A stretch of DNA of 64,000 nucleotides from Candidatus Magasanikiibacteriota bacterium (GTDB lineage Bacteria > Patescibacteriota > Patescibacteriia > Magasanikbacterales > JACTTX01). Below the pieces are notes generated by a model. The model made no database searches. It worked only from the letters and a program-made list of their open reading frames with translations, and was not told the DNA's origin. Position 1 is the stretch's first letter; each line of letters begins with the position of its first letter. This document shows, in pieces, positions 3,862 through 62,597 of this stretch. The stretch is taken from positions 856-64,855 of the forward strand of contig JACTTX010000002.1 in assembly GCA_015661005.1 (NCBI GenBank). The letters are read 5' to 3'. The translations under genes were made by a program, and so were the position numbers.

Positions 3862-4512
3862 CTATCTGTTCAACACGGGTCCCAAAATTGCTTTTATCTC
3901 CGCAAAAACATCATCAATGGATCCGGCGGCGTAGATTTTACGCACCAATCCTTTTTGCTCAAAAGCGGCCAAGACCGGCTCGGTATCCGCGTGATAAATT
4001 TTCAGACGTTCGCGAATGGCTGACGGTTTGTCGTCATCGCGCTGAATCAAAGCGCCGCCGCATTTGTCGCAAATCCCTTCCGCGGTCGGCGGATTGGTGA
4101 TGGTGTTATAAACGGCGCCGCATTTCTGACAAGTAAGCCGCGCGGACAAACGTTCCACCGCCACATCATCCGGCAAATCAAGCAAGATAACGTGACTGAC
4201 CGGACGCAAGGCGCCCAAAGCCGCCAACTGTTCGACGTCCCGCGGGTAGCCGTCCAAAATTACGCCGCCGCTCACATCATCTTTGTCCAAACGTTCCGCG
4301 ACAATCCGATTGGTGAGTTCCGATGGCGCCAATTTTCCGGCATTAATGTATTCCTTGATCTTGGCGCCAATCGGCGATTCGTTCTGAATGTGCGTGCGAA
4401 AAAGATCGCCGGTGGAGACGGCGGGAATGCCGTAGGCCGCGGATATTTTTGCGGCTTGCGTTCCTTTCCCTGATCCCTGCGGCCCAATGAGCACGATATT
4501 AAGTTGCGCCAT
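3862..4512 (-). CDS. adk: adenylate kinase with zinc-binding LID
   Basis: P-loop IVLIGPQGSGKGTQA and LID cysteines CQKCG...CDKCG. Confidence 0.92.
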   Translation of the reverse strand: MAQLNIVLIGPQGSGKGTQAAKISAAYGIPAVSTGDLFRTHIQNESPIGAKIKEYINAGKLAPSELTNRIVAERLDKDDVSGGVILDGYPRDVEQLAALGALRPVSHVILLDLPDDVAVERLSARLTCQKCGAVYNTITNPPTAEGICDKCGGALIQRDDDKPSAIRERLKIYHADTEPVLAAFEQKGLVRKIYAAGSIDDVFAEIKAILGPVLNR

Positions 4513-48791: not shown

Positions 48792-49424
48792 CTACGCCTT
48801 ATTAAACGACGGCGTAGGCAATGCTTTACCCAATATATAAGCAGTGATGACGCCAAGTGTCAACCCGCCGATGATGTCCAACGGATAATGCACACCGACA
48901 AAAATGCGCCCCAGTCCAACCAACGCCGCGGCCAAAATAAACCAACGCCCCAATTTTTTGTCCAAAAAATGAATCGCGAAAGCTAAAGCGAAAGCAACCG
49001 TGGCATGACCGGACGGAAAAGATTTTTCCGCTGGCGATTTTTCTATGAGCTGATGAACACCGGGGAGCGCGACGAACGGCCGTGGCCGAAACTTGAAGGC
49101 GCCAATCATAATATTCACGCCGTAAGCGATGGTCACAATCAAAACGACTTTAACTAAGGTTTGCAAAAAAAAATGCGCACCGAATTTTTTCCAATAGGTG
49201 CACAAAAAAACAATCAGACCTACGCCCATCACCATTATTAAATACTTGGCGAAAAAAATTCCCGCCAAGTCCAAAACACGCAAGCGTCCGGCCAATTCAT
49301 TGATGGCACGGAAAAGAATGATATCAAGAATCATAATTAATATTGTACCACAAAAAAAGAAAACCGGCCTGTCTGGAAAATTATTCCAAAAGAGGCCGGT
49401 GTTGTATGCGGGAAACGCACCCAC
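48792..49424 (-). CDS. PAP2-family phosphatase (undecaprenyl-diphosphatase-like)
   Basis: KFRPRPF, PSGHAT and GRIFVGVHYPLDI form the KxxxxxxRP/PSGH/SRxxxxxHxxxD triad. Confidence 0.8.
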   Translation of the reverse strand: MGAFPAYNTGLFWNNFPDRPVFFFCGTILIMILDIILFRAINELAGRLRVLDLAGIFFAKYLIMVMGVGLIVFLCTYWKKFGAHFFLQTLVKVVLIVTIAYGVNIMIGAFKFRPRPFVALPGVHQLIEKSPAEKSFPSGHATVAFALAFAIHFLDKKLGRWFILAAALVGLGRIFVGVHYPLDIIGGLTLGVITAYILGKALPTPSFNKA

Positions 49425-49995
49425 TCGCGTTCCTGCACACTCTCCTTAGCCGCAGTTGACCCGCCGCGGCAAAAAAGTTACCACCTTCCTGCTTCTGGGG
49501 TGTTCGGTATCAGGCGTCAAAGACGCGGGCGCGTGATGTGCTCCCGAAAGAGCGGCGCGTTTATGGATTGCCGAAACACGAACGATCCTCGACTCAAAGA
49601 TCGCTAAACCGGAACAGAGAAGGTAAGGGGAAAAATTCATACAGCCAGATTCTGATGAGCGGGGACTTAACGGCGCGCAATCTCCTGGAAGTCCTGTGAA
49701 ACATTAGCGGCCAAAACTGTCGTGCCCTCAATAAACCATTTGGAGAACTGGGTCATCAAGATTGTGTGTAAAAATAGTCCGGCCAGCACTCCGCCAAAAA
49801 AAATCGCGATGACGGGCAAGCGTTTATAAACATGGCGCTTGAAAAATTTGTAAAAAAAGAATGGGCGGCGTTTTGATTTCATACGAGGTCTCCGTATGAT
49901 CCACGCTCCCATTCAGCGTCAGACCGATTTTGCGCCTAAATCACGTTAACAAAATATAGTATACCAGAAAAAATCGCTTTTGTCAAAATCTATTT

Positions 49996-50550
49996 TCAAT
50001 CACGATGGCACAAATTGTTAATCTGCTGCCTAATCCCATAACCGCGACAATGTTTCAGCACCCCCAGATACGATTGCAGACTTTGTTCAAACGCTCCATT
50101 TTCCAACAAACCTTGATTAAACTTTTCATATTTAATCTTCAAACGCTTCAATAACCGCCGCTTGGTCTTGGTTCTAAGAATTGTATAATGCGGGAACGTC
50201 ACATAACCCAAAAAATCAACGCCTTGATGCCACTTGCGGAGTACGATTTTTTTAGGGTGTAGCGTTAATTGCAGGTTGCTCTCTAAAAAATCCCGAATCA
50301 TTATGGTAATACTTTCTAAAAATATCTTGCTCCGCGCGATTACCACGATATCATCGGCATACCGAATATAATTTTGAAAGCCAAACCGTTTGGTGATAAA
50401 CTGATCCAGTTCATCGAGATAGATATTTGAGAACAGCTGACTGGTGAGATTCCCGAGCGGTATTCCCTTTCCTGGTTGGTTATGAAAGCTGTATACAATC
50501 TTTTCAATCAGTCCCATCAGCTTTTCGTCAGCAACGCGCCGCCTAATCAC
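49996..50550 (-). CDS. diversity-generating retroelement (DGR) reverse transcriptase, apparently 5'-truncated (motifs 4-7 and thumb only)
   Basis: GIPLGNLTSQLFSNIY carries the DGR-specific xGxxxSQ variant of RT motif 4. Motif 5 YADD (YIRYADDIVVIA) and motifs 6/7 plus thumb are present. The ORF starts with GTG directly after the TR hairpin, with an in-frame TAA four codons upstream. No fingers or motif A (N-terminal palm) region was found. Confidence 0.75.
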   Translation of the reverse strand: MIRRRVADEKLMGLIEKIVYSFHNQPGKGIPLGNLTSQLFSNIYLDELDQFITKRFGFQNYIRYADDIVVIARSKIFLESITIMIRDFLESNLQLTLHPKKIVLRKWHQGVDFLGYVTFPHYTILRTKTKRRLLKRLKIKYEKFNQGLLENGAFEQSLQSYLGVLKHCRGYGIRQQINNLCHRD

Positions 50551-50571
50551 CCCGGCCGTTTAGCGCCGGGG
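50550..50571 (-). promoter_or_regulatory. GC hairpin between TR and RT
   Basis: Minus strand CCCCGGC-gcuaaacg-GCCGGGG lies immediately 3' of the TR and immediately before the RT start, the usual position of the DGR TR-associated stem-loop. Confidence 0.5.
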
Positions 50572-50577
50572 CAAAGA

Positions 50578-50698
50578 CTTCGGGAGAAAGAGACACCAAG
50601 ATTGTCATTGGAGTTGTCCGGTTTCCGGTTGTTGACGTTCGCGCCATCGGCATTGAAGTTGCCAACGTTCACCAGCTTCCCATTAGACGAGCGGCGCT
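50578..50698 (-). repeat. DGR template repeat (TR), non-coding, AAY-codon-rich
   Basis: About 121 bp that is ~75% identical to the 3' ends of genes 50921..53770 and 53782..54747. Read in frame with the VRs it gives RRSSNGKLVNVGNFNADGANVNNRKPDNSNDNLGVSFSRS, with 13 AAC/AAT/AAA/AAG codons. Roughly 30 mismatches to each VR, all but 1-2 at TR adenines (coding strand). Confidence 0.85.
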
Positions 50699-50920
50699 CT
50701 CTACACCTCTCCTATCCAGGGCAAGGACAAGCGGCCAAATAAGGCCGGATGCTGTATGAGCATGTAGCGGCAGCCCGGTCGCCTCAAGCGACCAGATCCG
50801 CATGAGAAAAGTGTAAGCAGTCTTTAGATATTGGCGAGGCGCATCCGTGAACGCGCCTTCATTAGCCGAGATTAGTATACCGAAACCAAATCAAAGTTTC
50901 AAGACTCAAAGTTCAAAGTT

Positions 50921-53770
50921 TCAATGACTGCGGGAGAAAGAGACGCCAAGACCGACATCGGAGTCGCCCGGCGCCCGGTCGCTGACGAGCGCGCCACCGG
51001 CATCGAAGCGGCCAACGAGCACCAGCCCCCCACCAGACGAGCGGCGGTTAGTCCATGTAAACTTATCCTCTAATAAACGGCTGTTAGTTTCAAAATACAT
51101 TAAAAGATCATACAATACTTCGGTCGGCGATTGCCGAGTAAGTTGATTTATTTTTAAGTCACCAAGTTTTTGAGCATACTTTGGCCAGTCACTGCTTTCG
51201 AGCAATACTTGTATCTCCGAATCACTCTTGCCCTGAAAATTTTGCGCGTAATAGCGCTCAAACTCGTCAATGGCGTCTTGATATTCCTGTGGCCTGGCGG
51301 CGGAGTCCTTAAAAACTTCATCAATTACATATCTGACCAGTTCCTGCGTTTGTTGAAGATAGTTCTTACTGGTTGAATTTGGAATATTTTCTTTACTCGT
51401 CAGCGCCCAGCGTACTTCCGACGTGTCGGTTTTATAAAATTTTTCGTTTGGATACCAATCTACTTTATACAGCACTTTTCCTTTCTTGCCTTTTTCAAAT
51501 TTATCTCCCAAAAGTTTATTCATCTTCTTCATGGTCAGCGGAGCATGGTCTGACGTCTTGTCAACGCGAAGCACTAAAAATTGGCCAAGCTCTTTTGCCA
51601 GTTCAAGGTCGGCTTCGGAAAAAGGAATCTCCGGAATTTCCTTGGTGTCCAATTTGATGCCAAAGGTCGCTTCCACCGCCTCTTGGCCCAAAAAATCGGA
51701 ACCCATAATTTCTGCCGCGCGTTCCAAACTGACTTCGTTTTCTTTCCCTTTGCGCCTTTCAGGCATCTTGGCCCCTTGCTTGTACAACGATAAGACGGGC
51801 TCATTGGTATCCTTGGTGACGCCAAGGAACTCATATACTTTTCCATCGGTATGTCTGATAAAATGACCCTCGCGTGCTTTGAAATCAGGCGTATAGCGTA
51901 CCCCGCCGATATCAAGCGAAGTAATAATATACTCTATCCGCTCTCCATCCTCATTCACCAAATAACTTTCAGCCACTTCCGCCTCCTCCGTTAACACCTT
52001 TTCGTATTTTACCCGCGGCGACAAGAGACCTATATCAACGGCTGTTAAATTTTCAAACTGCCGATCTTCATCCCGGGCGGGATTGTCAACATCAATAGCA
52101 AAATTTTTTAAAAATTCTTTTACCAATATTCGATCCTCGTTCGGGTAAGCGGCGCGATCCAAAAATTGCGTTTTTAACTTTTTGCCAATGAAACTTTCTA
52201 AACTCATGGCGCGACCGAGCGCTCCATACTCCTTAAGCCAACCAAGCACGGTGCCTATGTCAATAATTAAATCTTTAACATACTGCGCGTCCCCCTTGGC
52301 CTTTAATACGGTCTCACGATGTGAGAATGATTTGTTCAGCTCGTTTAAGGCATTGGCAAAACGCCAGAGATACCCCCCGCCGTTGGTTAGTTCACGTGTT
52401 TGCACATTCGCTTTCACCATTTTCCCCGCGCGTTCAATATTCTTTTTCTTCTCTTTATAGATATACGCCGGGATCACTTCAGATTTTGCCACGCGCATCC
52501 GTCCATTTTCGTCAATCAACGCGGCGAGCATCATTTCATAAATTTCCGGATCATCTCCGCTTTGTGGCGGATAATCCAAATCAACCTTGGCGAATTTGCG
52601 GAGCACTTCCGGCGGAATCTTTTTGCGCTCATAACGTTGCGAGGCCAAATTAACCATGGCGCAGTAGAGAAAATCCAAAGCGACGGTTACTTCCTCATTC
52701 GTTACCGGCATGCGGACGCGCTTGCCCGGGGTCCAAGCGGCGATCCGCGCCAACCTCTCGGTTTGTTCCGCCGACCCGAGCAGGTTAAACTCGTCATCAG
52801 CCACAATCCGACCGCGGTGCACGGGTTCGCCATCAAGCGTACTTGTTTTCCCCGTTACCGCTTCACCAATTTCCTTATATTCGTAATAAGTTCTGCCATC
52901 GGGAGCAATTTTTGGTTTGGCGATAAGATCTTGGAACCGCACATCCTTGCCGGGCGTTTCGTTATTGACGCGTTTAGTCAGGATGATGGCCGCTTGTTCA
53001 ACTAAACGAGTTTTCCCCGTACCGGATTCACCGGAAAGTAGCACCGGCTTGCCCGAAAGCGCCGCCAATTCCATTTCTTCCAAAAACTCACGACGCGAAG
53101 GCGACCAAATAAAATTATCGCGCCGCAGTTGCCCCGAGTATCCTTTGAGCGTTTCATATTCCACAAGACCGCCGAGTTCGGGATTGGTAGTTACCAAATC
53201 CCGCAGTCGTTCACGATTTGCGGAGAGCTGCCGCTTATTAGTTTCAAACATCAAGACCTCAATCTCATCGGCGGCGCCGCTACGACCCGCAAACATTTGC
53301 CGCACTGATGCGTCAAAAGCATTCTCTGCCACCTTAATTTGCTTGTCTAACGCCAGATATTTTTCATAATTGCCGTTGATTGAATCAATTTCCTTGAGAT
53401 ACCGCTTAGAGCCGACCAGATATGCCTCTCTAGTTTTCTTGTCTTCATATAAATTTTTTAAAATTGACAAGCCATTTTTCATTTTGGAAATTTCCACAGC
53501 GCCCGCCTTGACTTTTCTTCCGCTGACCAAACCCTTGATCTCTTGGAAAGCGGCCCACAGCGATTCTGCTCGCTGTTCGGGAGAAAGATACGAAAAATCT
53601 GCCGTACTTGCAGATATCTTTGCCAGCCCGGAAATCTGGTTGCATTGCTCGATCAACAAACCTACCGGATCACTTTTGATTTTCTCCGGCTTACCTAATG
53701 GCGCTCTCTCCAAACTGCTAAATTGTATTCCTCGTTCTGCCATACGATAAATCAAAGTTTCAAGACTCAA
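50921..53770 (-). CDS. AAA+ (MoxR/AAA_5-like) ATPase-containing multidomain protein with DGR-diversified C-terminal ligand-binding domain
   Basis: 949 aa. Walker A GKPVLLSGESGTGKTRL and Walker B IVADDEFNLL of the AAA_5 type. The C-terminal ~300 aa are paralogous to gene 53782..54747. The extreme C-terminus (...GLGVSFSRSH) is VR1. Confidence 0.75.
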   Translation of the reverse strand: MSLETLIYRMAERGIQFSSLERAPLGKPEKIKSDPVGLLIEQCNQISGLAKISASTADFSYLSPEQRAESLWAAFQEIKGLVSGRKVKAGAVEISKMKNGLSILKNLYEDKKTREAYLVGSKRYLKEIDSINGNYEKYLALDKQIKVAENAFDASVRQMFAGRSGAADEIEVLMFETNKRQLSANRERLRDLVTTNPELGGLVEYETLKGYSGQLRRDNFIWSPSRREFLEEMELAALSGKPVLLSGESGTGKTRLVEQAAIILTKRVNNETPGKDVRFQDLIAKPKIAPDGRTYYEYKEIGEAVTGKTSTLDGEPVHRGRIVADDEFNLLGSAEQTERLARIAAWTPGKRVRMPVTNEEVTVALDFLYCAMVNLASQRYERKKIPPEVLRKFAKVDLDYPPQSGDDPEIYEMMLAALIDENGRMRVAKSEVIPAYIYKEKKKNIERAGKMVKANVQTRELTNGGGYLWRFANALNELNKSFSHRETVLKAKGDAQYVKDLIIDIGTVLGWLKEYGALGRAMSLESFIGKKLKTQFLDRAAYPNEDRILVKEFLKNFAIDVDNPARDEDRQFENLTAVDIGLLSPRVKYEKVLTEEAEVAESYLVNEDGERIEYIITSLDIGGVRYTPDFKAREGHFIRHTDGKVYEFLGVTKDTNEPVLSLYKQGAKMPERRKGKENEVSLERAAEIMGSDFLGQEAVEATFGIKLDTKEIPEIPFSEADLELAKELGQFLVLRVDKTSDHAPLTMKKMNKLLGDKFEKGKKGKVLYKVDWYPNEKFYKTDTSEVRWALTSKENIPNSTSKNYLQQTQELVRYVIDEVFKDSAARPQEYQDAIDEFERYYAQNFQGKSDSEIQVLLESSDWPKYAQKLGDLKINQLTRQSPTEVLYDLLMYFETNSRLLEDKFTWTNRRSSGGGLVLVGRFDAGGALVSDRAPGDSDVGLGVSFSRSH
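50924..51047 (-). repeat. DGR variable repeat 1 (VR1) at the 3' end of the AAA+ gene
   Basis: Aligns to the TR with substitutions confined to positions where the TR has A on the coding strand. A shared non-A difference near the 3' end (GGC/CGC in VR versus GGT/CGA in TR) is consistent with IMH versus IMH*. Confidence 0.85.
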
Positions 53771-53781
53771 AGTTCAAAGTT

Positions 53782-54747
53782 TCAATGACTGCGGGAGAAA
53801 GAGACGCCAAGATTGCCATAGGAGCTGTCCGGCGGCCGGTCGAAGACGCCCGCGCCACCGGCATCGAAGTCGCCAACGTCCACCAGCCTCCCATTAGACG
53901 AGCGGCGCTTGGTCCAAGTGTAATCTGTCTCTAAAATCTTCGTTCCGGTATTTTGAAAATGAATGAGCATATCATACAGAGCGTCAGCCGGAGATTGCCT
54001 AGTAAGTTCATTAAGCTGTAATTCTGAAAGTTCCTTGGCATAACGCTCCCATTCGCTATCTAATAATTGTTTGATTTGCTCGGGTGTTTTGCCTTGAAAA
54101 TTGCGATCATAGTACGTTTGAAATTCATTGATCGCGGCCTGATATTGGGGTGGCAGATCCTGGTCTTTAAAAACTTCTTCAGTCAGATATTGGATTAAGG
54201 CCTGTGTTTGTTCTACATAGTTTTTGCTCTTTGAATCCGAGATGAGAGTCCGCGATGAGAGCGCCCAAGTTGCTTGAGGCGTTTCGGTGGTAAAAAATTC
54301 TGATTTTATTTTCCACCCTTCCTTTGTATCATACAATACCTTGCCCTTCCCGGCTTGGGAAAAATCAGCTTGTAAGAGTTCGTGCATTTTCCGCATGGTG
54401 AGTGGTTGACCATCTGGGGCTTTATCCGCGCGAAGCACTAAAAACTGCCCCAGCTCCTTGGCTCGTTCCAAATCTACTTTTAAAAATGGAATCTCCGGTA
54501 TTTGCTCTCGCGCCAGCCGAATACCGAACGCTTTTTCCACCGCTTCTGGTCCAAAAAAATTCTCCCGACCGATAATTGTTTCGGCCTGTTCCATCGTCAG
54601 TTTCTCGCCTCTTTTAAATTCCGGTTGCTTGTGCTTCTCCGGCCCGCCGAGTTTAGCTACTTCAGCGGTACTTAAAACTTTAAAATGGGACGATAAAGCG
54701 TCTTTAGTAATAACAAATGGTCGGTTTGATTTCAGACCTTCACGCAT
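53782..54747 (-). CDS. stand-alone paralog of the variable C-terminal domain (DGR target 2)
   Basis: 321 aa aligning to residues ~640-949 of the AAA+ protein (FGPEAVEKAFGIRLA...EIPEIPF...AKELGQFLVLR...KNY.EQTQ....DVGDFDAGGAGVFDRPPDSSYGNLGVSFSRSH). Its 3' end is VR2. Confidence 0.7.
   Translation of the reverse strand: MREGLKSNRPFVITKDALSSHFKVLSTAEVAKLGGPEKHKQPEFKRGEKLTMEQAETIIGRENFFGPEAVEKAFGIRLAREQIPEIPFLKVDLERAKELGQFLVLRADKAPDGQPLTMRKMHELLQADFSQAGKGKVLYDTKEGWKIKSEFFTTETPQATWALSSRTLISDSKSKNYVEQTQALIQYLTEEVFKDQDLPPQYQAAINEFQTYYDRNFQGKTPEQIKQLLDSEWERYAKELSELQLNELTRQSPADALYDMLIHFQNTGTKILETDYTWTKRRSSNGRLVDVGDFDAGGAGVFDRPPDSSYGNLGVSFSRSH
53785..53909 (-). repeat. DGR variable repeat 2 (VR2)
   Basis: Same TR-derived segment. 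All mismatches to the TR but one fall at TR adenines. The 3' flank is identical to that of VR1 for ~45 nt (AACTTTGAACTTTGAGTCTTGAAACTTTGATTT after the stop). Confidence 0.85.
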
Positions 54748-54751
54748 AAAA

Positions 54752-57247
54752 CTATGTTATTTTCCGTGGCCGTAATTTTTTAAATTCGTGGACGATATCT
54801 TTACCCAATATCTTTGGCAATTCTGAAAATGAGGATAAAGGCGGAGCGGCGTCGGCGCTTTGGGAAGATCCGCCAATCGTATAACTTCTAACTATCATTC
54901 CCTTAGCCTTTAAGTGCCGATGCTTAGTTTCGGTAGCTTCAAAATCATCGGGAGCGCCATCGGAAATCTCGGCGGTGTAATGAATTGGCTGTTTTTCCAG
55001 TTGAATATTCTTTTGGCGCAAATCCGCTAATTCTTTATCCAAATCGCGCTCAATAAGCTCTAAGGTTTTATGCGTTGGCGTGCCACCGCTCGCGAGCTTG
55101 GTCAGGGCGGAATAAAACGCCCACTGTTCCTTGGGTCCCCATTTATCAGTTAAATGCAGACGCACCTCCCCGGCGTCTGAAGCTAAAGTTACCATAATCT
55201 TTAAAGGGAGTAAATCCGAATCTTCCCCTTCCTGGCGGCCAATGTAGGCGCACTGCATCAAGCCGTCAACGAACAAAAGCGCGACATCGCGCTGGACGTC
55301 CGCTTTAGTGCGGCCGCTCGCCCCGTCCGGCTCGCCCATAGAACCGGATAAATCAAAAGAAAAATAGACATTGATGCCGCCAAAGTGTGTTTCTATTTTC
55401 TCAACCACCTCATCTTTTTCAAAGCCGCCGGGGTTAAACTCGCGGGAACGGATATCAATTGCGGCCTCGACCGGATTTTCCAAACGGTCGCCTTCATCCA
55501 TCCGCACCGGCCCCCGATAATCATGTCCGGCCACTTTGCGCTCTTCCACGATCTTACGCCACTCCTCTTTCACCAGGTCGCTGATAGACACGCCGGTTTC
55601 ATCTTTAATTTCCCGCACGCGATCGAGCGCTCTTAAAAATTTCCGCGCTTGTTCAGGCGTACATTCGGCCAGCTCCGAAAAGTGTTCTTCGACAACGTCA
55701 AAACGCGATTTTTTCTTTTCTCCCCCGCCACCGGCTTCTTTCTTTTTTAGATCCTTTAATTGTTTTTTAGCTTCATCCGCGGATGCCAACTCTTCATCAG
55801 GATGTTCATAGTCGCCCTCGCCGGTTTCGCCTTCTAGATCACGTTTCTGTTCATCTTCATCAATCGTCGGATCGCCTTTTGGCGTTGCGTCTAATTTGAT
55901 CGCCCGACGACTTTGGCCGTCCCAAACTTCGAGCCAAGCGTGGCCGTTGTCGGCGTGCATAATCGCGTCACCATCTTCCGTCCGGTCTTTGACATAAAAT
56001 CCGGTGACATAACGAAAATCTTTATCTATCTCAAGAAGCGCACGACAAGCAAGATCATTAGCAATCTTGCAGTCCGCCTCTTTTTTCTCCCAAATACGGT
56101 TAAAATATTCAGCGGGTCTGGCGCGATAATAACGGTATGCTTCCGGACTGTTAGAATATTTCAAAGAGTTGTGAATTAGCTTAACAATTTCTCTTTTCAG
56201 TTTAATCTTAGGAAACCGCTTGGCTTTTAGTTCTTCAATTTTTACTTTCAGGTCATTAGGGATTTCACCGGTCATCCCGACCTCTCTGAATTTTTCCGTT
56301 TCCCCAATGTATAACCGACGCCCGGCTCGCAGATTATATTGGGACACACCGGCGGCGCTGATACGCAGATACCACAAACCGTCCTGGTTTCTTGAAAGTT
56401 CAGCTGATCCTTCGGGAGCGTCAGTTTGCAGATTTTCTGGATCAAACACCCAATCGTCGGGCAGGGGCAAAGATAGGGGTTCACCGCCGCGAATTTTTCC
56501 GAAAAAAACTTTGGCGGTAGATATTTCAAAAGATTCAGGCCCGGCTTCGCTAAACTTATTTTCTTCTTTGCTCCAGCGGCCGCTTTCAACATCAAAATTT
56601 TCAAATACCAGTTGCTTGTAATAACCACCAAAAAATGGTTTGACACGAAAGAGCGGTGTGGGCGGACCTTCTTTTTTCTCTCTTCCTGTTTCCATTGACG
56701 ATCTCGCCTCTTCACTGGTTGACGGCACATCATTTTCGTCCGGTTCAGATTCTTTTTCCTCCGCTGGGACTTCAGGCGCTTCTTTCGGTTTGGCCAAATC
56801 GGTCAGATCGCGGTCAGCCAACCATTCAAGCGCCGTCTTAATTTGTGTATCGTAAATTTTCCGCTTTAAATTCCAGGAAACATCCGTGTTGGTTAGTGTT
56901 TCAAAGACGTTGATATACCCACCCCTTGTTTTTACGTTCGCTAACGGTTGTATGAACTTCAAAACCCGAACATTAACGTCTTTAAGATCAATTAATTGTT
57001 TCTGCGCCAGACAAGCCCCCAAGGTATACAAAAACTGATCGGTTAAAGGTAGCCCGCTGTCGCTCGGGGCAGGCGCTACTCCCTTCATGGCGCTTTCGAC
57101 TAAACGGCGAACGGCATGAGGTACTTCTTGTTTCCAAATCAGATACTCCTCGGCATCGGTAGCGTCTTTAAATTCAAAAGCCGCCGCCTCTTTGCCGGTT
57201 TCAATGGTTGCAATTATGGGTCGTTTTCCTTCTCCGCGTTCAGGCAT
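54752..57247 (-). CDS. transglutaminase-like cysteine protease domain + von Willebrand factor A (vWA) domain protein
   Basis: 831 aa. TGase-like triad context CKIANDLACRALLE...HAWLEVWDG. vWA MIDAS motifs VYFSFDLSGSMG and ISDGAPDD. Lies 4 bp upstream of the paralog gene on the same strand. Confidence 0.75.
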   Translation of the reverse strand: MPERGEGKRPIIATIETGKEAAAFEFKDATDAEEYLIWKQEVPHAVRRLVESAMKGVAPAPSDSGLPLTDQFLYTLGACLAQKQLIDLKDVNVRVLKFIQPLANVKTRGGYINVFETLTNTDVSWNLKRKIYDTQIKTALEWLADRDLTDLAKPKEAPEVPAEEKESEPDENDVPSTSEEARSSMETGREKKEGPPTPLFRVKPFFGGYYKQLVFENFDVESGRWSKEENKFSEAGPESFEISTAKVFFGKIRGGEPLSLPLPDDWVFDPENLQTDAPEGSAELSRNQDGLWYLRISAAGVSQYNLRAGRRLYIGETEKFREVGMTGEIPNDLKVKIEELKAKRFPKIKLKREIVKLIHNSLKYSNSPEAYRYYRARPAEYFNRIWEKKEADCKIANDLACRALLEIDKDFRYVTGFYVKDRTEDGDAIMHADNGHAWLEVWDGQSRRAIKLDATPKGDPTIDEDEQKRDLEGETGEGDYEHPDEELASADEAKKQLKDLKKKEAGGGGEKKKSRFDVVEEHFSELAECTPEQARKFLRALDRVREIKDETGVSISDLVKEEWRKIVEERKVAGHDYRGPVRMDEGDRLENPVEAAIDIRSREFNPGGFEKDEVVEKIETHFGGINVYFSFDLSGSMGEPDGASGRTKADVQRDVALLFVDGLMQCAYIGRQEGEDSDLLPLKIMVTLASDAGEVRLHLTDKWGPKEQWAFYSALTKLASGGTPTHKTLELIERDLDKELADLRQKNIQLEKQPIHYTAEISDGAPDDFEATETKHRHLKAKGMIVRSYTIGGSSQSADAAPPLSSFSELPKILGKDIVHEFKKLRPRKIT

Positions 57248-60998: not shown

Positions 60999-62597
60999 CT
61001 AAATAAGCGGCCTCCCGCTCATCTCCGGCGGCGGCGCAATCCCGAGCAGTTTCAAAATCGTGGGCGCTACATCCGCCAAAACACCAACCGGTTGGGATAA
61101 ACTCAAATCCCCTTCAATGGCGTCGTTACCCATCGCGTTTTGACCTTCCCATTGCTTGCCGCAAACAATAAAGGGGATGGGATTGGTGGAATGCTCTTTG
61201 TCCTTTTCACCGGTTTTTAGATTCACCAACTCCTCGCCGTTTCCATGATCAGCCGTGAAAACCAAAACGCCGCCATGCGCCAGCGTCAAATCCAAAATCG
61301 GCCCGAGCGCTTTATCAATCGCTTCCACGCCTCTGATTGTTGCCGCCAGATCTCCGGTGTGTCCGACCATATCAGCATTCGCGAAATTCATTAAAATGCA
61401 ATCGTACTTGCTGGATTCAATGGCCGCCGCGCATGCTTTGCCTAACTCCGCCGCCGCCATTTCCGGCGCCTCGGCGTATGATGCCACCTTGGGCGAAGGA
61501 ATAATCTGGCGATCCTCTCCCGGAAACGGATCTTCAATCGTGCCATTTAGGAAAAAAGTGATGTGGGCGTATTTTTCCGTTTCCGCCAAATGAAGTTGCT
61601 TGAGTCCGGCGTTGGCCAGAAGTTCCGCCAAAGAATTTTTAATGACGTCCGGCGGATAGGCCACCGTTACCGGCAAACCCTTTTCAAATTCAGCCATGGT
61701 GGCAAAAAAAAGATTTTGAATCCGCGGACGAGTGAACTTATCAAAACTCGGAAGCACAAATGCCTTGGTCAATTCCCGCGCGCGATCCGGACGGAAGTTC
61801 ATAAAAATGACGGCATCATTGTCTTTAACATTGCCAACGGGCGCGCCATTCTTCACCATTGTTACCGGCAAAAATTCTTCATCATACACTTTGGCGGCGT
61901 AAGACGTCTCTATGGCTTTAAGCGGATCTTCAAAGATGGGTGCGTCTGACGCTGATGTCCAAGTCATGGCGCGATACATTTTTTCCACGCGCTCCCAGCG
62001 GTTATCGCGATCCATGGCAAACATCCGTCCACCGAGCGAGGCAATTTCACCAACACCAATCTCTTTCATCCGGCTCATGGCGCGGCCGATAAAGTCCTTG
62101 CCGCTGTCAAACTTAACATCGCGACCGTCAAGAATGGCATGGACTTTAACGTTGGATATTCCTTGTTGTTTGGCAAATTGGCAAAGAGCGTAAAGATGAT
62201 CTTCGGCGCCATGGACGTTCCCCGGAGAAAGAATGCCCAAAAGATGCAAAGTGGAATTATTTTTTTTGACGTGCTCGGCGGCTTGAAGGAACGCCGTGTT
62301 TTTAAAAAATTCTCCGGTCACGATTTCTTTATTGATGCGCGGAAAAGTTTGATAGTACACGCGTCCGGCTCCAATGTTCAAATGCCCGACTTCCGAGTTG
62401 CCCATTTCTCCCCAAGAAAGTCCGACTTCAATACCGGATGCCACGATGGTAACCGCCGGATATGTCCGCACCATCCGATCAAAGTTTGGTTTTTTGGCGA
62501 GGGTAATGGCATTGCCGTCCGAAGGCGGCGCCACGCCCCAACCGTCACAGATCACAAGAACGAGCGGACGAGGACGATTGGCGGAGGCGTCAGTCAT
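60999..62597 (-). CDS. gpmI: 2,3-bisphosphoglycerate-independent phosphoglycerate mutase
   Basis: 532 aa; VICDGWG, EMGNSEVGHLNIGAGR, ILDGRDV, FTADHGN. Confidence 0.92.
   Translation of the reverse strand: MTDASANRPRPLVLVICDGWGVAPPSDGNAITLAKKPNFDRMVRTYPAVTIVASGIEVGLSWGEMGNSEVGHLNIGAGRVYYQTFPRINKEIVTGEFFKNTAFLQAAEHVKKNNSTLHLLGILSPGNVHGAEDHLYALCQFAKQQGISNVKVHAILDGRDVKFDSGKDFIGRAMSRMKEIGVGEIASLGGRMFAMDRDNRWERVEKMYRAMTWTSASDAPIFEDPLKAIETSYAAKVYDEEFLPVTMVKNGAPVGNVKDNDAVIFMNFRPDRARELTKAFVLPSFDKFTRPRIQNLFFATMAEFEKGLPVTVAYPPDVIKNSLAELLANAGLKQLHLAETEKYAHITFFLNGTIEDPFPGEDRQIIPSPKVASYAEAPEMAAAELGKACAAAIESSKYDCILMNFANADMVGHTGDLAATIRGVEAIDKALGPILDLTLAHGGVLVFTADHGNGEELVNLKTGEKDKEHSTNPIPFIVCGKQWEGQNAMGNDAIEGDLSLSQPVGVLADVAPTILKLLGIAPPPEMSGRPLI

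Follow-up and report, generated by a model that had tools for sequence, protein, structure and literature searches.

A CPR-type diversity-generating retroelement with two diversified targets and a probably disabled enzyme module

The genome part examined here is a 64-kb window (the whole stretch of DNA analysed, to which all positions refer) of a Candidatus Magasanikbacteria metagenome-assembled genome. In this window a 127-nt repeat occurs in three copies and nowhere else, once as a template repeat (TR) outside any gene and twice as a variable repeat (VR1 and VR2) that forms the end of a gene (Table 1). Target 1 consists of an AAA_5 (dynein/midasin-type) ATPase domain (Pfam E = 6.9e-8, residues 242-366) fused to a C-terminal paralog of target 2 of ~300 aa, the two paralogous parts being 50% identical, and fusions of AAA_5 to the target are also found at loci L048, L053, L056, L068, L082 and others. 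Both VRs constitute the C-termini of proteins with a C-type-lectin fold (C-type-lectin/FGE-like). The 831-aa protein encoded upstream of the targets carries, near its C-terminus, a vWA-type DxSxS motif (DLSGSM) that was spotted by eye, and has a homolog at the equivalent position in L004, L048, L056, L082 and others. Hundreds of homologs of the reverse transcriptase (RT) and the targets come from Patescibacteria genomes, and the protein clusters of the RT and of target 2 hold one member each.

Table 1. Positions of the cassette features in the 64-kb window; slashes in the junction sequence separate its parts.
Feature	Position	Strand	Description
RT remnant	49996..50550	-	184 codons; motifs 4-7 and thumb kept; LGNLTSQ and YADD present
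Deletion junction	50547..50551		...GGCCGGGG/TGA/TTAGG...; from alignments to L004 and L048
GC stem-loop	50550..50571	-	CCCCGGC / GCUAAACG / GCCGGGG, 3' of TR
TR	50572..50698	-	template repeat, non-coding, adenine-rich (31 A in 127 nt)
Structured 5' leader of TR RNA	50699..50868	-	P1 hairpin, P0 5' strand, P2, P3, P4
Promoter-like site	50874..50902	-	TTGAAA, 17 nt, TATACT; 10/12 consensus matches
Flank after VR1 stop codon	50888..50920	-	TTTGA-repeat element
Target gene 1	50921..53770	-	949 aa by ORF call; probable ATG start 53743
VR1	50922..51048	-	last ~41 codons of target 1; variable part 50952-51034
Flank after VR2 stop codon	53749..53781	-	tandem TTTGA/TTGAA repeats, identical to VR1 flank
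Target gene 2	53782..54747	-	321 aa, stand-alone variable protein, C-type-lectin fold
VR2	53783..53909	-	last ~41 codons of target 2; variable part 53813-53895
Upstream cassette gene	54752..57247	-	831 aa; transglutaminase-like core, Pfam Transglut_core E = 9.9e-6

The three copies of the repeat were compared on the coding (minus) strand across all 127 nt. Relative to the TR, 27 positions are changed in VR1, 24 of them TR adenines (hypergeometric P = 1.3e-16), and 19 in VR2, 17 of them TR adenines (hypergeometric P = 6.6e-11). Altogether 26 of the 31 TR adenines are altered in at least one VR, the altered sites falling on codon positions 1, 2 and 3 in 12, 12 and 2 cases, respectively, and AAY codons account for 10 of the 40 TR codons. 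Both VRs match the TR at all 67 non-adenine positions of the variable segment (50602-50696). Three fixed differences are common to both VRs (50595 T>C, 50580 A>C and 50575 T>A); they sit in the last ~30 nt of the TR and all 3' of the last variable adenine, which is the pattern of an IMH and a non-identical IMH*. The VRs of L004 and L048 likewise have the VR-type base at 50595 and 50580, and their VR flank has a 2-nt gap at 50575, while an extra edge difference (G>C at 50697) is confined to VR1. Of ~44 further TR/VR pairs in this family, most show the adenine-specific signature too. The sequence-only reading of this stretch had already recognised a repeat in three copies, two of them at gene ends and ~121 bp long by its estimate, as well as the mismatch bias to TR adenines, which holds over the full alignment, the conservation of the other bases, which is complete inside the variable segment, the wealth of AAY codons and the C-type-lectin-like nature of the targets, for which the fold of the target proteins gives support. 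Its figure of ~30 differences per VR was too high, and its single shared difference at the 3' end correctly pointed to IMH versus IMH* but is one of three.

Compared with each other, VR1 and VR2 are identical at 95 of the 96 non-adenine repeat positions and differ at 19 of the 31 adenine positions, and 33 nt are identical behind both stop codons, even though identity between the paralogs is just 63% over the 300 nt preceding the VRs. This comparison shows concerted evolution, in which both VRs were rewritten from the TR of the window after the paralogs had diverged. Across the family, the TTTGA motif that makes up the flanks has a density of 3.8 per 55 nt behind VRs (n = 82), compared to 0.25 behind TRs (n = 32). 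These flanks are AT-rich direct repeats, not GC-rich inverted repeats, and the GC stem-loop of the window comes after the TR rather than after a VR. A GC-rich inverted repeat behind the VR occurs in 34% of DGRs (diversity-generating retroelements) and is hence not obligatory. The VR-specific tandem TTTGA flank may take the place of a GC cruciform in marking the DNA target.

The last TTGAAA of the VR1 flank is at the same time the -35 box of a putative promoter for the TR RNA, and the conserved RNA starts 6 nt downstream of this promoter-like site. Located between TR and VR1, the 170-nt leader forms a covarying RNA domain that is conserved at 41 loci. Its P2 is a 12-bp long-range helix around P3 and P4, which form hairpins in nearly all homologs, and the single strands CAUAUUUAUACA and UUGCCnnGGAU are conserved. 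RNAalifold reports compensatory changes in 16 of 26 pairs; 20 of the 26 change on both sides, 96.4% of the cells are paired as compared to ~50% in slid controls, and the observed values were reached by none of 500 shuffles. A covariance model of the leader scores 126.9 bits in the window and gives 41 full-length matches at the equivalent position in relatives. In Rfam, the leader-TR region of the window has no family match at gathering thresholds, and at E <= 10 the interval 50500-50960 gives two chance-level matches only, RT-10 being assumed to be part of Rfam 15. The GC-rich stretch at 49.4-49.65 kb likewise has no Rfam family match and folds no better than shuffles (z = -1.3).

Two further helices would connect sequences on either side of the template. 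The P0 5' strand in the leader, AAAGACU (50820-50826), can pair with AGUCUUU (50573-50579) within the last ~30 nt of the TR; in a MAFFT alignment that was not structure-fitted, P0 is paired in 85% of cells versus at most 50% in slid controls, with 13 double-change cells versus 2.8 expected. The candidate duplex P5 joins the 5' edge of the TR to its invariant 3' part and coincides exactly with the point at which adenine mutagenesis ends. Since a 3-nt change of register in some relatives precludes column-wise covariation, P5 was compared by duplex energy only, by which own partners (-15.2 kcal/mol) pair better than cross partners (-12.8 kcal/mol) and are favoured in 16 of 20 cases; P5 may be a template:primer duplex. 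The GC stem-loop, whose position beside the TR had been noted from the letters alone, shows a compensatory change from C-G to U-A between the window and L004/L048. In relatives it is followed by a T-run that is missing in the window, and hairpin and T-run together would act there as an intrinsic terminator shared with a convergent avd. With leader, P0, TR and hairpin all in place, the comparison shows the predicted template RNA gene of the window to be intact.

The enzyme module is preserved only in part. The RT frame lacks motifs 1-3, the N-terminal extension, the fingers and motif A with the first catalytic aspartate, and the window does not encode a complete, catalytically competent RT with motifs 1-7 and three catalytic aspartates. 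Pfam RVT_1 covers profile positions 117-203 of 205 only, homology to full-length relatives (300-322 aa) starts exactly at 50550, which corresponds to their residue ~125-141, and the fragment aligns with residues 174-283 of the Bordetella phage enzyme bRT, beyond the catalytic D138. The closest solved relative of the fragment is bRT (8ub7; E = 6.6e-15), as compared to 5.6e-11 for the best group II enzyme, and with a full-length homolog as query bRT is found at E = 6e-39, whereas the best group II intron enzyme reaches 3e-24. These matches support the assignment of the window RT to the DGR clade; a search against NCBIfam gave no DGR-specific match, only sub-threshold matches to group II intron, Drt and retron families.

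The accessory gene avd is found in about 70% of DGRs. Tblastn with 10 Avd sequences of the family detected none in the 64-kb window (best E = 0.045), and 3 + 10 RT queries, full-length relatives included, detected no N-terminal RT half in any frame of the 64 kb; a weak match at 63.8-63.95 kb was rejected as a piece of RT or avd, as it sits in enolase. In the normal cassette of this family, represented by ~22 loci, the transglutaminase/vWA gene is followed by a short target, an AAA_5-fused target, the leader, the TR, the hairpin with T-run, avd on the opposite strand and an RT of ~310 aa. Every relative for which the sequence extends far enough has avd, at a distance of 10-125 nt behind the TR (in L004 it scores 79.4 bits against NCBIfam DivGenRetAVD), and ~22 loci have avd together with an RT that starts at residue 1-3. 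[quoted passage not shown]

In comparison to L004, the window lacks ~0.83 kb, comprising the T-run, the entire avd, the spacer between avd and RT and RT codons 1 to ~124. The deletion begins immediately 3' of the TR hairpin; L048, the closest relative, has the same gene order and retains T-run and avd start after the hairpin. We consider it very improbable that the truncation is an artefact of assembly or binning, for example a collapse at the TR/VR repeats of a genome that in reality has a complete avd and RT: repeats of this kind commonly break or mis-join short-read assemblies, and contig L130 does end within VR1, but the junction lies 20-25 nt past the end of the repeat in unique sequence, and the missing segment is not flanked by repeats in relatives. 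Moreover, the identical junction is found in L130, an independent assembly record that differs by 2 SNPs elsewhere and that, being possibly from the same or a related sample, excludes a one-off assembler error, though not a minority-variant consensus. In L086, an insertion sequence of the DDE-transposase type with 18-bp inverted repeats is inserted in the RT gene, and its right junction is the same nucleotide as the breakpoint in the window (TGA/TTAG in both). The window contains neither a copy nor an end of this element, and an IS-mediated origin of the deletion was rejected, leaving a noteworthy coincidence but no explanation.

The remnant frame is still open and 71% identical to the nearest relative over 147 aa, which fits a recent deletion and would also fit retained function of some kind. 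Several database homologs are called at 180-200 aa with the same alignment start (for example P0052, P0019 and P0023), as would be expected if the 184-aa protein were a natural split or minimal RT, functional in its encoded form and perhaps complemented by an N-terminal half from another gene. We regard this as the least probable reading: at L001, the one case checked at the DNA level, tblastn places the N-terminal part of P0052 immediately upstream, on the same strand and in two adjoining segments, which makes the short protein a gene-calling artefact and not a member of a natural short-RT subfamily, and the window has no N-terminal RT sequence in any frame. Also missing from the fragment are the stretch that would match bRT D138, the fingertips loop and the N-terminal extension, which in the structure of bRT touch template and Avd (bioRxiv 10.1101/2023.10.23.563531).

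By its sequence anatomy the locus is a genuine chromosomal DGR of CPR type with two diversified targets and an intact template RNA gene, and most probably the cassette has lost self-diversification through the ~0.83-kb deletion that took avd and the RT N-terminus. The loss of autonomous diversification is what we infer from the absence of avd and of the front third of the RT. The clean adenine-only TR/VR pattern implies either that the loss of the enzymes is recent or that another DGR of the genome acts on the RNA in trans. In the latter case the cassette would still be active, the TR RNA and both VRs being served by a complete RT-Avd, and the lack of any non-adenine difference at the 67 such positions of each VR, the intact leader, P0, TR and hairpin, and the documented trans action and coexistence of several DGRs per genome (PMC8632793; Wu et al., 2018, PMC5758913, where ~10% of complete genomes that bear a DGR have more than one) all speak for it. 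It nevertheless appears unlikely, as no second RT or avd was found in the 64 kb and CPR genomes are small; a foreign RT-Avd would in addition need to recognise the RNA of the window, whose 3' end would be unlike that of relatives owing to the deleted terminator T-run. We therefore describe the locus as a member of the known CPR DGR clade that would be recently disabled or trans-dependent. The sequence-only reading was right to see a DGR with one TR and two VRs, an RT frame with LGNLTSQ and YADD, and an enzyme of the DGR clade rather than a group II intron or retron RT, bRT being the best solved match. It overlooked that the frame is a 184-aa C-terminal fragment without N-terminal extension, fingers and motif A, and the working element implied by its mutagenic retrohoming as in BPP-1 is not supported, avd, present in every comparable relative, being absent here as well.

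For the intact form, a mechanism can be proposed from the anatomy together with the published mechanism of the Bordetella phage. A promoter just behind VR1 would transcribe the ~170-nt structured leader, the 127-nt TR and the terminal hairpin; the RT-Avd complex would copy the TR into cDNA, misincorporating opposite adenines, and the cDNA would replace the last ~40 codons of the two paralogous C-type-lectin-fold proteins, one stand-alone and one fused to AAA_5. Diversification would be restricted to the ligand-binding face, because the adenines occupy codon positions 1 and 2. In the window, the ~0.83-kb deletion would have removed the terminator T-run, the whole avd and the ~125-130 N-terminal RT codons, including the first catalytic aspartate.

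The cassette type, including the target fused to AAA/midasin, has been catalogued for CPR bacteria before, in the 'CPR set', probably under architecture B3, with UVR4 targets that carry a Midasin/AAA domain (Wu et al., 2018, PMC5758913), and in 'DGR clade 2' (Roux et al., 2021, PMC8144416). The cassette of the relatives probably equals B3, the order being taken from the loci analysed here and not from the published definition of B3. The host group, two targets per TR, C-terminal VRs, adenine-specific mutagenesis, targets without recognisable domains except for the AAA ATPase fusion and, in the relatives, the order of targets, TR, avd and RT are shared with the DGRs of CPR/DPANN, on which Paul and co-workers reportedly wrote in 2017. 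The window copy differs from these in the loss of avd and ~125-130 N-terminal RT residues. The fold of UVR-class VRs was left open by Wu et al. (2018, PMC5758913), whereas the VRs of the window have a C-type-lectin/FGE-like fold, and we found no mention of the structured leader and the TTTGA flank in Wu et al. (2018) or Roux et al. (2021). Sequence identity to Treponema denticola TvpA (PDB 2y3c), Mtd (1yu0) and TaqVP (5vf4) is about 10%, and unlike these the family of the window carries either a helical N-terminal part of its own or an AAA_5 ATPase, and it lies beside a transglutaminase/vWA gene.

With the DGR of BPP-1 (mtd, avd, TR, brt) the locus shares the adenine mutagenesis between TR and VR, the 3' differences of IMH versus IMH*, a C-type-lectin-fold target, the I/LGxxxSQ motif of an RT whose closest solved homolog is bRT, a stem-loop just 3' of the TR and a duplex between TR-upstream and TR-downstream sequence (P0 here, avd:Sp 'cPRT Stop' in BPP-1). 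In contrast to BPP-1, it is chromosomal, has two targets, carries TTTGA direct repeats and no GC inverted repeat behind the VRs, has a broken enzyme module, with avd convergent and downstream of the TR in its relatives, and has most of its structured RNA (~170 nt) 5' of the TR, where the 140-nt Sp of BPP-1 is 3'. A DGR template is likewise joined to a conserved structured RNA in the case of the RT-10 motif (Weinberg et al., 2017, PMC5737381), which forms the spacer between TR and brt in BPP-1-type DGRs, but that RNA is situated 3' of the TR, between it and the RT gene. Covariation supports the four-helix domain (P1-P4) of ~170 nt on the 5' side as well as P0, whose AGUCUUU strand is placed just 3' of the TR in this model, the remaining 3' part being just a 7-8-bp hairpin and a terminator. 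We tentatively suggest, while leaning slightly against it, that the template RNA of the CPR DGR clade has a protein-binding scaffold permuted with respect to the Bordetella phage paradigm.

As a CPR DGR the locus is ordinary, as thousands have been catalogued and cassettes with a short and an AAA-fused target were noted before. It offers a datable example of DGR decay, with the enzyme module gone and TR, RNA scaffold and both VRs pristine, and it cautions that a TR/VR signature and an RT motif alone are insufficient to score a DGR as functional. To our knowledge there is no experimental model for the CPR DGR clade. The cis elements exposed by the family comparison, namely a covarying 5' leader RNA, a closing helix between upstream and downstream sequence and TTTGA repeats behind each VR, may be relevant to how this clade works and, if undescribed, would provide handles on priming, termination and target recognition. 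If the scaffold is indeed permuted, the window would keep all cis elements of such a system without its enzymes.

The window holds three copies of a 127-nt repeat and none elsewhere, namely a template repeat (TR) and two variable repeats (VR1 and VR2) that end the two target genes, both of which are coded on the minus strand. This bears out the three-copy arrangement proposed in an earlier sequence-only reading, whose description of the repeats was correct apart from two counts.

Repeats of the diversity-generating retroelement (DGR) and the promoter-like site beside VR1
Feature	Position	Strand	Remark
TR	50572-50698	minus	127-nt repeat
VR1	50922-51048	minus	127-nt repeat
VR2	53783-53909	minus	127-nt repeat
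Promoter-like site (TTGAAA, 17 nt, TATACT)	50902 to 50874	minus	directly past VR1 stop codon

Tallied by TR base over the 127 nt, the claimed adenine bias holds: TR adenines account for 24 of the 27 mismatches in VR1 (hypergeometric P = 1.3e-16) and for 17 of the 19 in VR2 (P = 6.6e-11), numbers that replace the earlier figure of about 30 differences per VR. Within the variable segment, neither VR differs from the TR at a non-A position (0/67 each). Altogether 26 of the 31 TR adenines are altered in at least one VR, the altered sites falling on codon positions 1, 2 and 3 in 12, 12 and 2 cases, and the TR, which reads RRSSNGKLVNVGNFNADGANVNNRKPDNSNDNLGVSFSRS, carries AAY at 10 of its 40 codons. 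Three fixed differences are common to both VRs (50595 T>C, 50580 A>C, 50575 T>A), rather than the single shared non-A difference noted before; all lie 3' of the last variable adenine and constitute the IMH/IMH* arrangement. Over the 300 nt 5' of the VRs the two target genes are just 63% identical. Between VR1 and VR2, by contrast, 95 of the 96 non-A repeat positions carry the same base, and differences occupy 19 of the 31 A positions, so both tails were rewritten from the TR after the paralogs had diverged. Mutagenic homing from the TR into VR1 and VR2 has taken place in the past.

Target 2 (321 aa) is a member of a family that spans the Patescibacteria and numbers at least 132 proteins, none of them with a Pfam domain; it ends in the consensus WTxRRxSxGxLVxVGxFDAxGAxVxxWxPxxSxGxLGVSFSRS, in which many of the variable x positions are TR-adenine codons. 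Its AlphaFold2 model, built from 38 sequences, reaches a mean pLDDT of 90.9. Target 1 consists of a module of about 300 aa of the target 2 type fused to an AAA_5 ATPase; in the classification of Wu et al. 2018 (PMC5758913) it probably falls under 'UVR4 / Midasin domain'. The protein encoded upstream (831 aa) contains a transglutaminase core and, read by eye, a vWA-type DLSGSM motif. As an AAA_5 ATPase and a vWA partner, target 1 and this protein may act as a functional pair.

The enzyme module, in contrast to the repeats, is broken. The reverse transcriptase ORF (49996-50550) comprises just 184 codons and matches Pfam RVT_1 only over profile positions 117-203 of 205, while its database homologs are 300-322 aa long. 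In tblastn searches with three full-length homologs, homology starts exactly at 50550, equivalent to homolog residue 125-141, and no counterpart of the N-terminal part was found in the 64 kb; ten further N-terminal queries against the same 64 kb again returned none, their single weak match lying within enolase. The closest solved relative is the Bordetella phage reverse transcriptase bRT (8ub7), in which I181, G182 and Q187 agree with the published numbering, and the fragment aligns to bRT residues 174-283, past the catalytic D138 (bioRxiv 10.1101/2023.10.23.563531). According to this alignment and the RVT_1 match, it retains motif 4 (LGNLTSQ), motif 5 (YADD), motifs 6-7 and the thumb, and is devoid of the N-terminal extension, the fingers and motif A. 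The sequence-only reading had recognized the two motifs but missed the truncation. The helper gene avd was not found in the window either; both avd and the reverse transcriptase N-terminus have been lost.

What was lost can be read from intact relatives. In the nearest loci, L004 (reverse transcriptase 71% identical) and L048 (target 74% identical), the TR hairpin is followed by a T-run and then by avd on the opposite strand; L004 continues past avd into a reverse transcriptase with motifs 1-3, and L048 shares the window's gene order of transglutaminase gene, 324-aa target, 940-aa AAA_5 target, spacer and TR. A survey of 79 metagenome loci with target homologs and 42 genome loci with reverse transcriptase homologs revealed a recurrent cassette: transglutaminase/vWA gene, short target, AAA_5 target, 217-340-nt spacer, TR, hairpin with T-run, avd (minus strand, 10-125 nt past the TR) and a reverse transcriptase of about 310 aa. 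In some 22 loci avd is accompanied by a reverse transcriptase that begins at residue 1-3, and the window alone among the surveyed loci has its TR abutting a truncated one. The adenine-specific signature recurs in most of about 44 other TR/VR pairs, which marks the family as a working DGR lineage. Compared with L004, the window is missing about 0.83 kb, that is, the T-run, avd, the intergenic spacer and reverse transcriptase codons 1 to about 124. The junction, GGCCGGGG/TGA/TTAGG, recurs without a single base change in L130 (ERZ27247315), a separate assembly record; the two SNPs that distinguish this record from the window lie further downstream. A one-off misassembly is therefore unlikely. An assembly artefact or an unusual enzyme is left with a very small share of probability.

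Several related loci show irregularities of their own. In L106 (6960-7965), reverse transcriptase homology falls into two pieces with an interruption of about 80 nt near residue 151-154, and the leader-RNA match, too, is weak and sits out of position; the locus may represent another cassette in decay. In L086 (3590-4512), the reverse transcriptase is split by an insertion sequence that has a 295-aa DDE/rve-type transposase and inverted repeats of 18 bp (TCAATAGCTTGTGACCAC). On the right side, the junction of this element (..CTATTGA/TTAGAAAA) lies at the same nucleotide as the window breakpoint (GGGGTGA/TTAGGCGG), the flanking codons are duplicated but diverged, and the window contains no copy of the element. 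L004, otherwise intact, carries at its TR position (4206-4327; L005 identical) an adenine-depleted copy with 8% A versus 21-31% in other TRs. The L048 TR is nearly identical to this copy, most of the differences falling on adenines of the L048 TR, and at the IMH* position the copy shows the C of the VR type (CCCGCAGTC). Its appearance is that of a TR rewritten through its own mutagenic homing once IMH* had turned IMH-like, a natural counterpart of the BPP-1 experiment in which IMH* was reportedly converted to IMH.

The 222 nt between VR1 and TR look empty but hold a conserved RNA. Conservation across the family extends from 50868 up to the TR, with clear covariation: RNAalifold on 19 sequences gives a hairpin, P1, and a 12-bp long-range helix, P2, with compensatory changes in 16 of 26 pairs. 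The covariance model derived from this alignment yields 41 matches, nearly all full-length (126.9 bits for the window) and about 20 from loci outside model building; all lie on the reverse transcriptase strand, and those located sit immediately 5' of a TR. In the model-derived alignment, which favours structure as it was fitted to the model, 96.4% of cells are paired versus 43-55% in slid controls and 20 of 26 pairs show both-side changes, values reached by none of 500 shuffles. Inside P2, two further segments (P3 and P4) fold as hairpins in nearly all homologs despite differing sequences. A further helix, P0, joins the invariant leader AAAGACU (50820-50826) to AGUCUUU (50573-50579), directly 3' of the IMH*-like TR part; on a plain MAFFT alignment it is 85% paired versus at most 50% in slid controls, double changes occur in 13 cells (2.8 expected), and one pair is seen as G-C, C-G and A-U. 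Since the corresponding VR sequence reads AGUCAUU, P0 is specific to the TR. The window RNA (50551-50868) folds with z = -3.0, its single-sequence fold giving P1, P2, P3 and P0, and the leader-TR region matches no Rfam family. A duplex between the TR 5' edge and its 3' invariant part (P5), with compensatory variants such as AAACGAG/CUCGUU in the related locus L012, is possible; its support comes from duplex energies (own -15.2 vs cross -12.8 kcal/mol).

The GC stem-loop noticed earlier is present past the TR; its stem covaries (C-G in the window to U-A in L004/L048), and a T-run follows it in relatives. The loop of this hairpin (50551-50571; alignment A4, columns 548-580) reads YUAAAYG in most relatives, unusually conserved for a terminator loop, and could be a protein-binding or priming feature. 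No GC inverted repeat was found past VR1 or VR2. The 33 nt past their stop codons (50888-50920 and 53749-53781) are identical, with tandem TTTGA/TTGAA units, and family-wide TTTGA occurs 3.8 times per 55 nt past 82 VRs versus 0.25 times past 32 TRs; the array may mark the DNA target.

Beyond the remnant reverse transcriptase, directly past its stop codon, lies the strongest promoter-like site of the region (49958-49986, minus; TTGACA, 17 nt, TATACT; 11/12 matches, with TG), upstream of an 81-aa ORF (49667-49912) that matches no family. The GC-rich stretch between this ORF and a PAP2-family membrane protein gene (49385-49660), with a hairpin and T-run at about 49340-49390, resembles an RNA, which we rejected because no Rfam family matches the stretch and its fold is no more stable than those of shuffled sequences (z = -1.3).

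Promoter, leader, TR and hairpin are all intact in the window. BPP-1 requires RT-Avd to make cDNA (PMC6182149), and one catalytic aspartate is missing from the fragment, so the cassette would be unable to diversify in cis. Either the enzyme was lost recently, as the absence of non-A substitutions (0/134 sites) and the still open remnant frame suggest, or the RNA is used in trans; we regard trans complementation of the TR RNA as unlikely, and a cassette disabled in cis that bears the footprint of recent activity as the probable state. The first bases of the L130 contig fall within the invariant 3' part of VR1 (L130:1-20, window 50945-50926), so its assembly was interrupted precisely at the border of the variable segment; branching of the graph caused by the repeats would be compatible with this, as would VR heterogeneity in the sample. 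Reads of the same population exist, since the 532-aa phosphoglycerate mutase (iPGM) at 60999-62597 is identical in ERZ27247315 and Logan SRR13434397.

In BPP-1, the essential RNA comprises a TR:Sp primer duplex, an upstream:downstream 'cPRT Stop' duplex and an Avd-binding stem-loop 3' of the TR, where the bulk of the scaffold lies (bioRxiv 10.1101/2023.10.23.563531; RT-10 motif, PMC5737381). By analogy, P0 might correspond to the stop duplex and the terminal hairpin to the Avd-binding stem-loop, while the P1-P4 domain would be the scaffold shifted to the 5' side of the TR. Such a permuted scaffold with possibly new cis elements, which we propose tentatively, would be a property of the whole clade rather than of the window. 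The locus, which has the TR/VR pairs, IMH, reverse transcriptase clade and target fold of a DGR and lacks avd as well as a full-length reverse transcriptase, has its origin in the CPR DGR lineage (Wu et al. 2018; Roux et al. 2021) and works likewise; it is a decayed member of that already described lineage.
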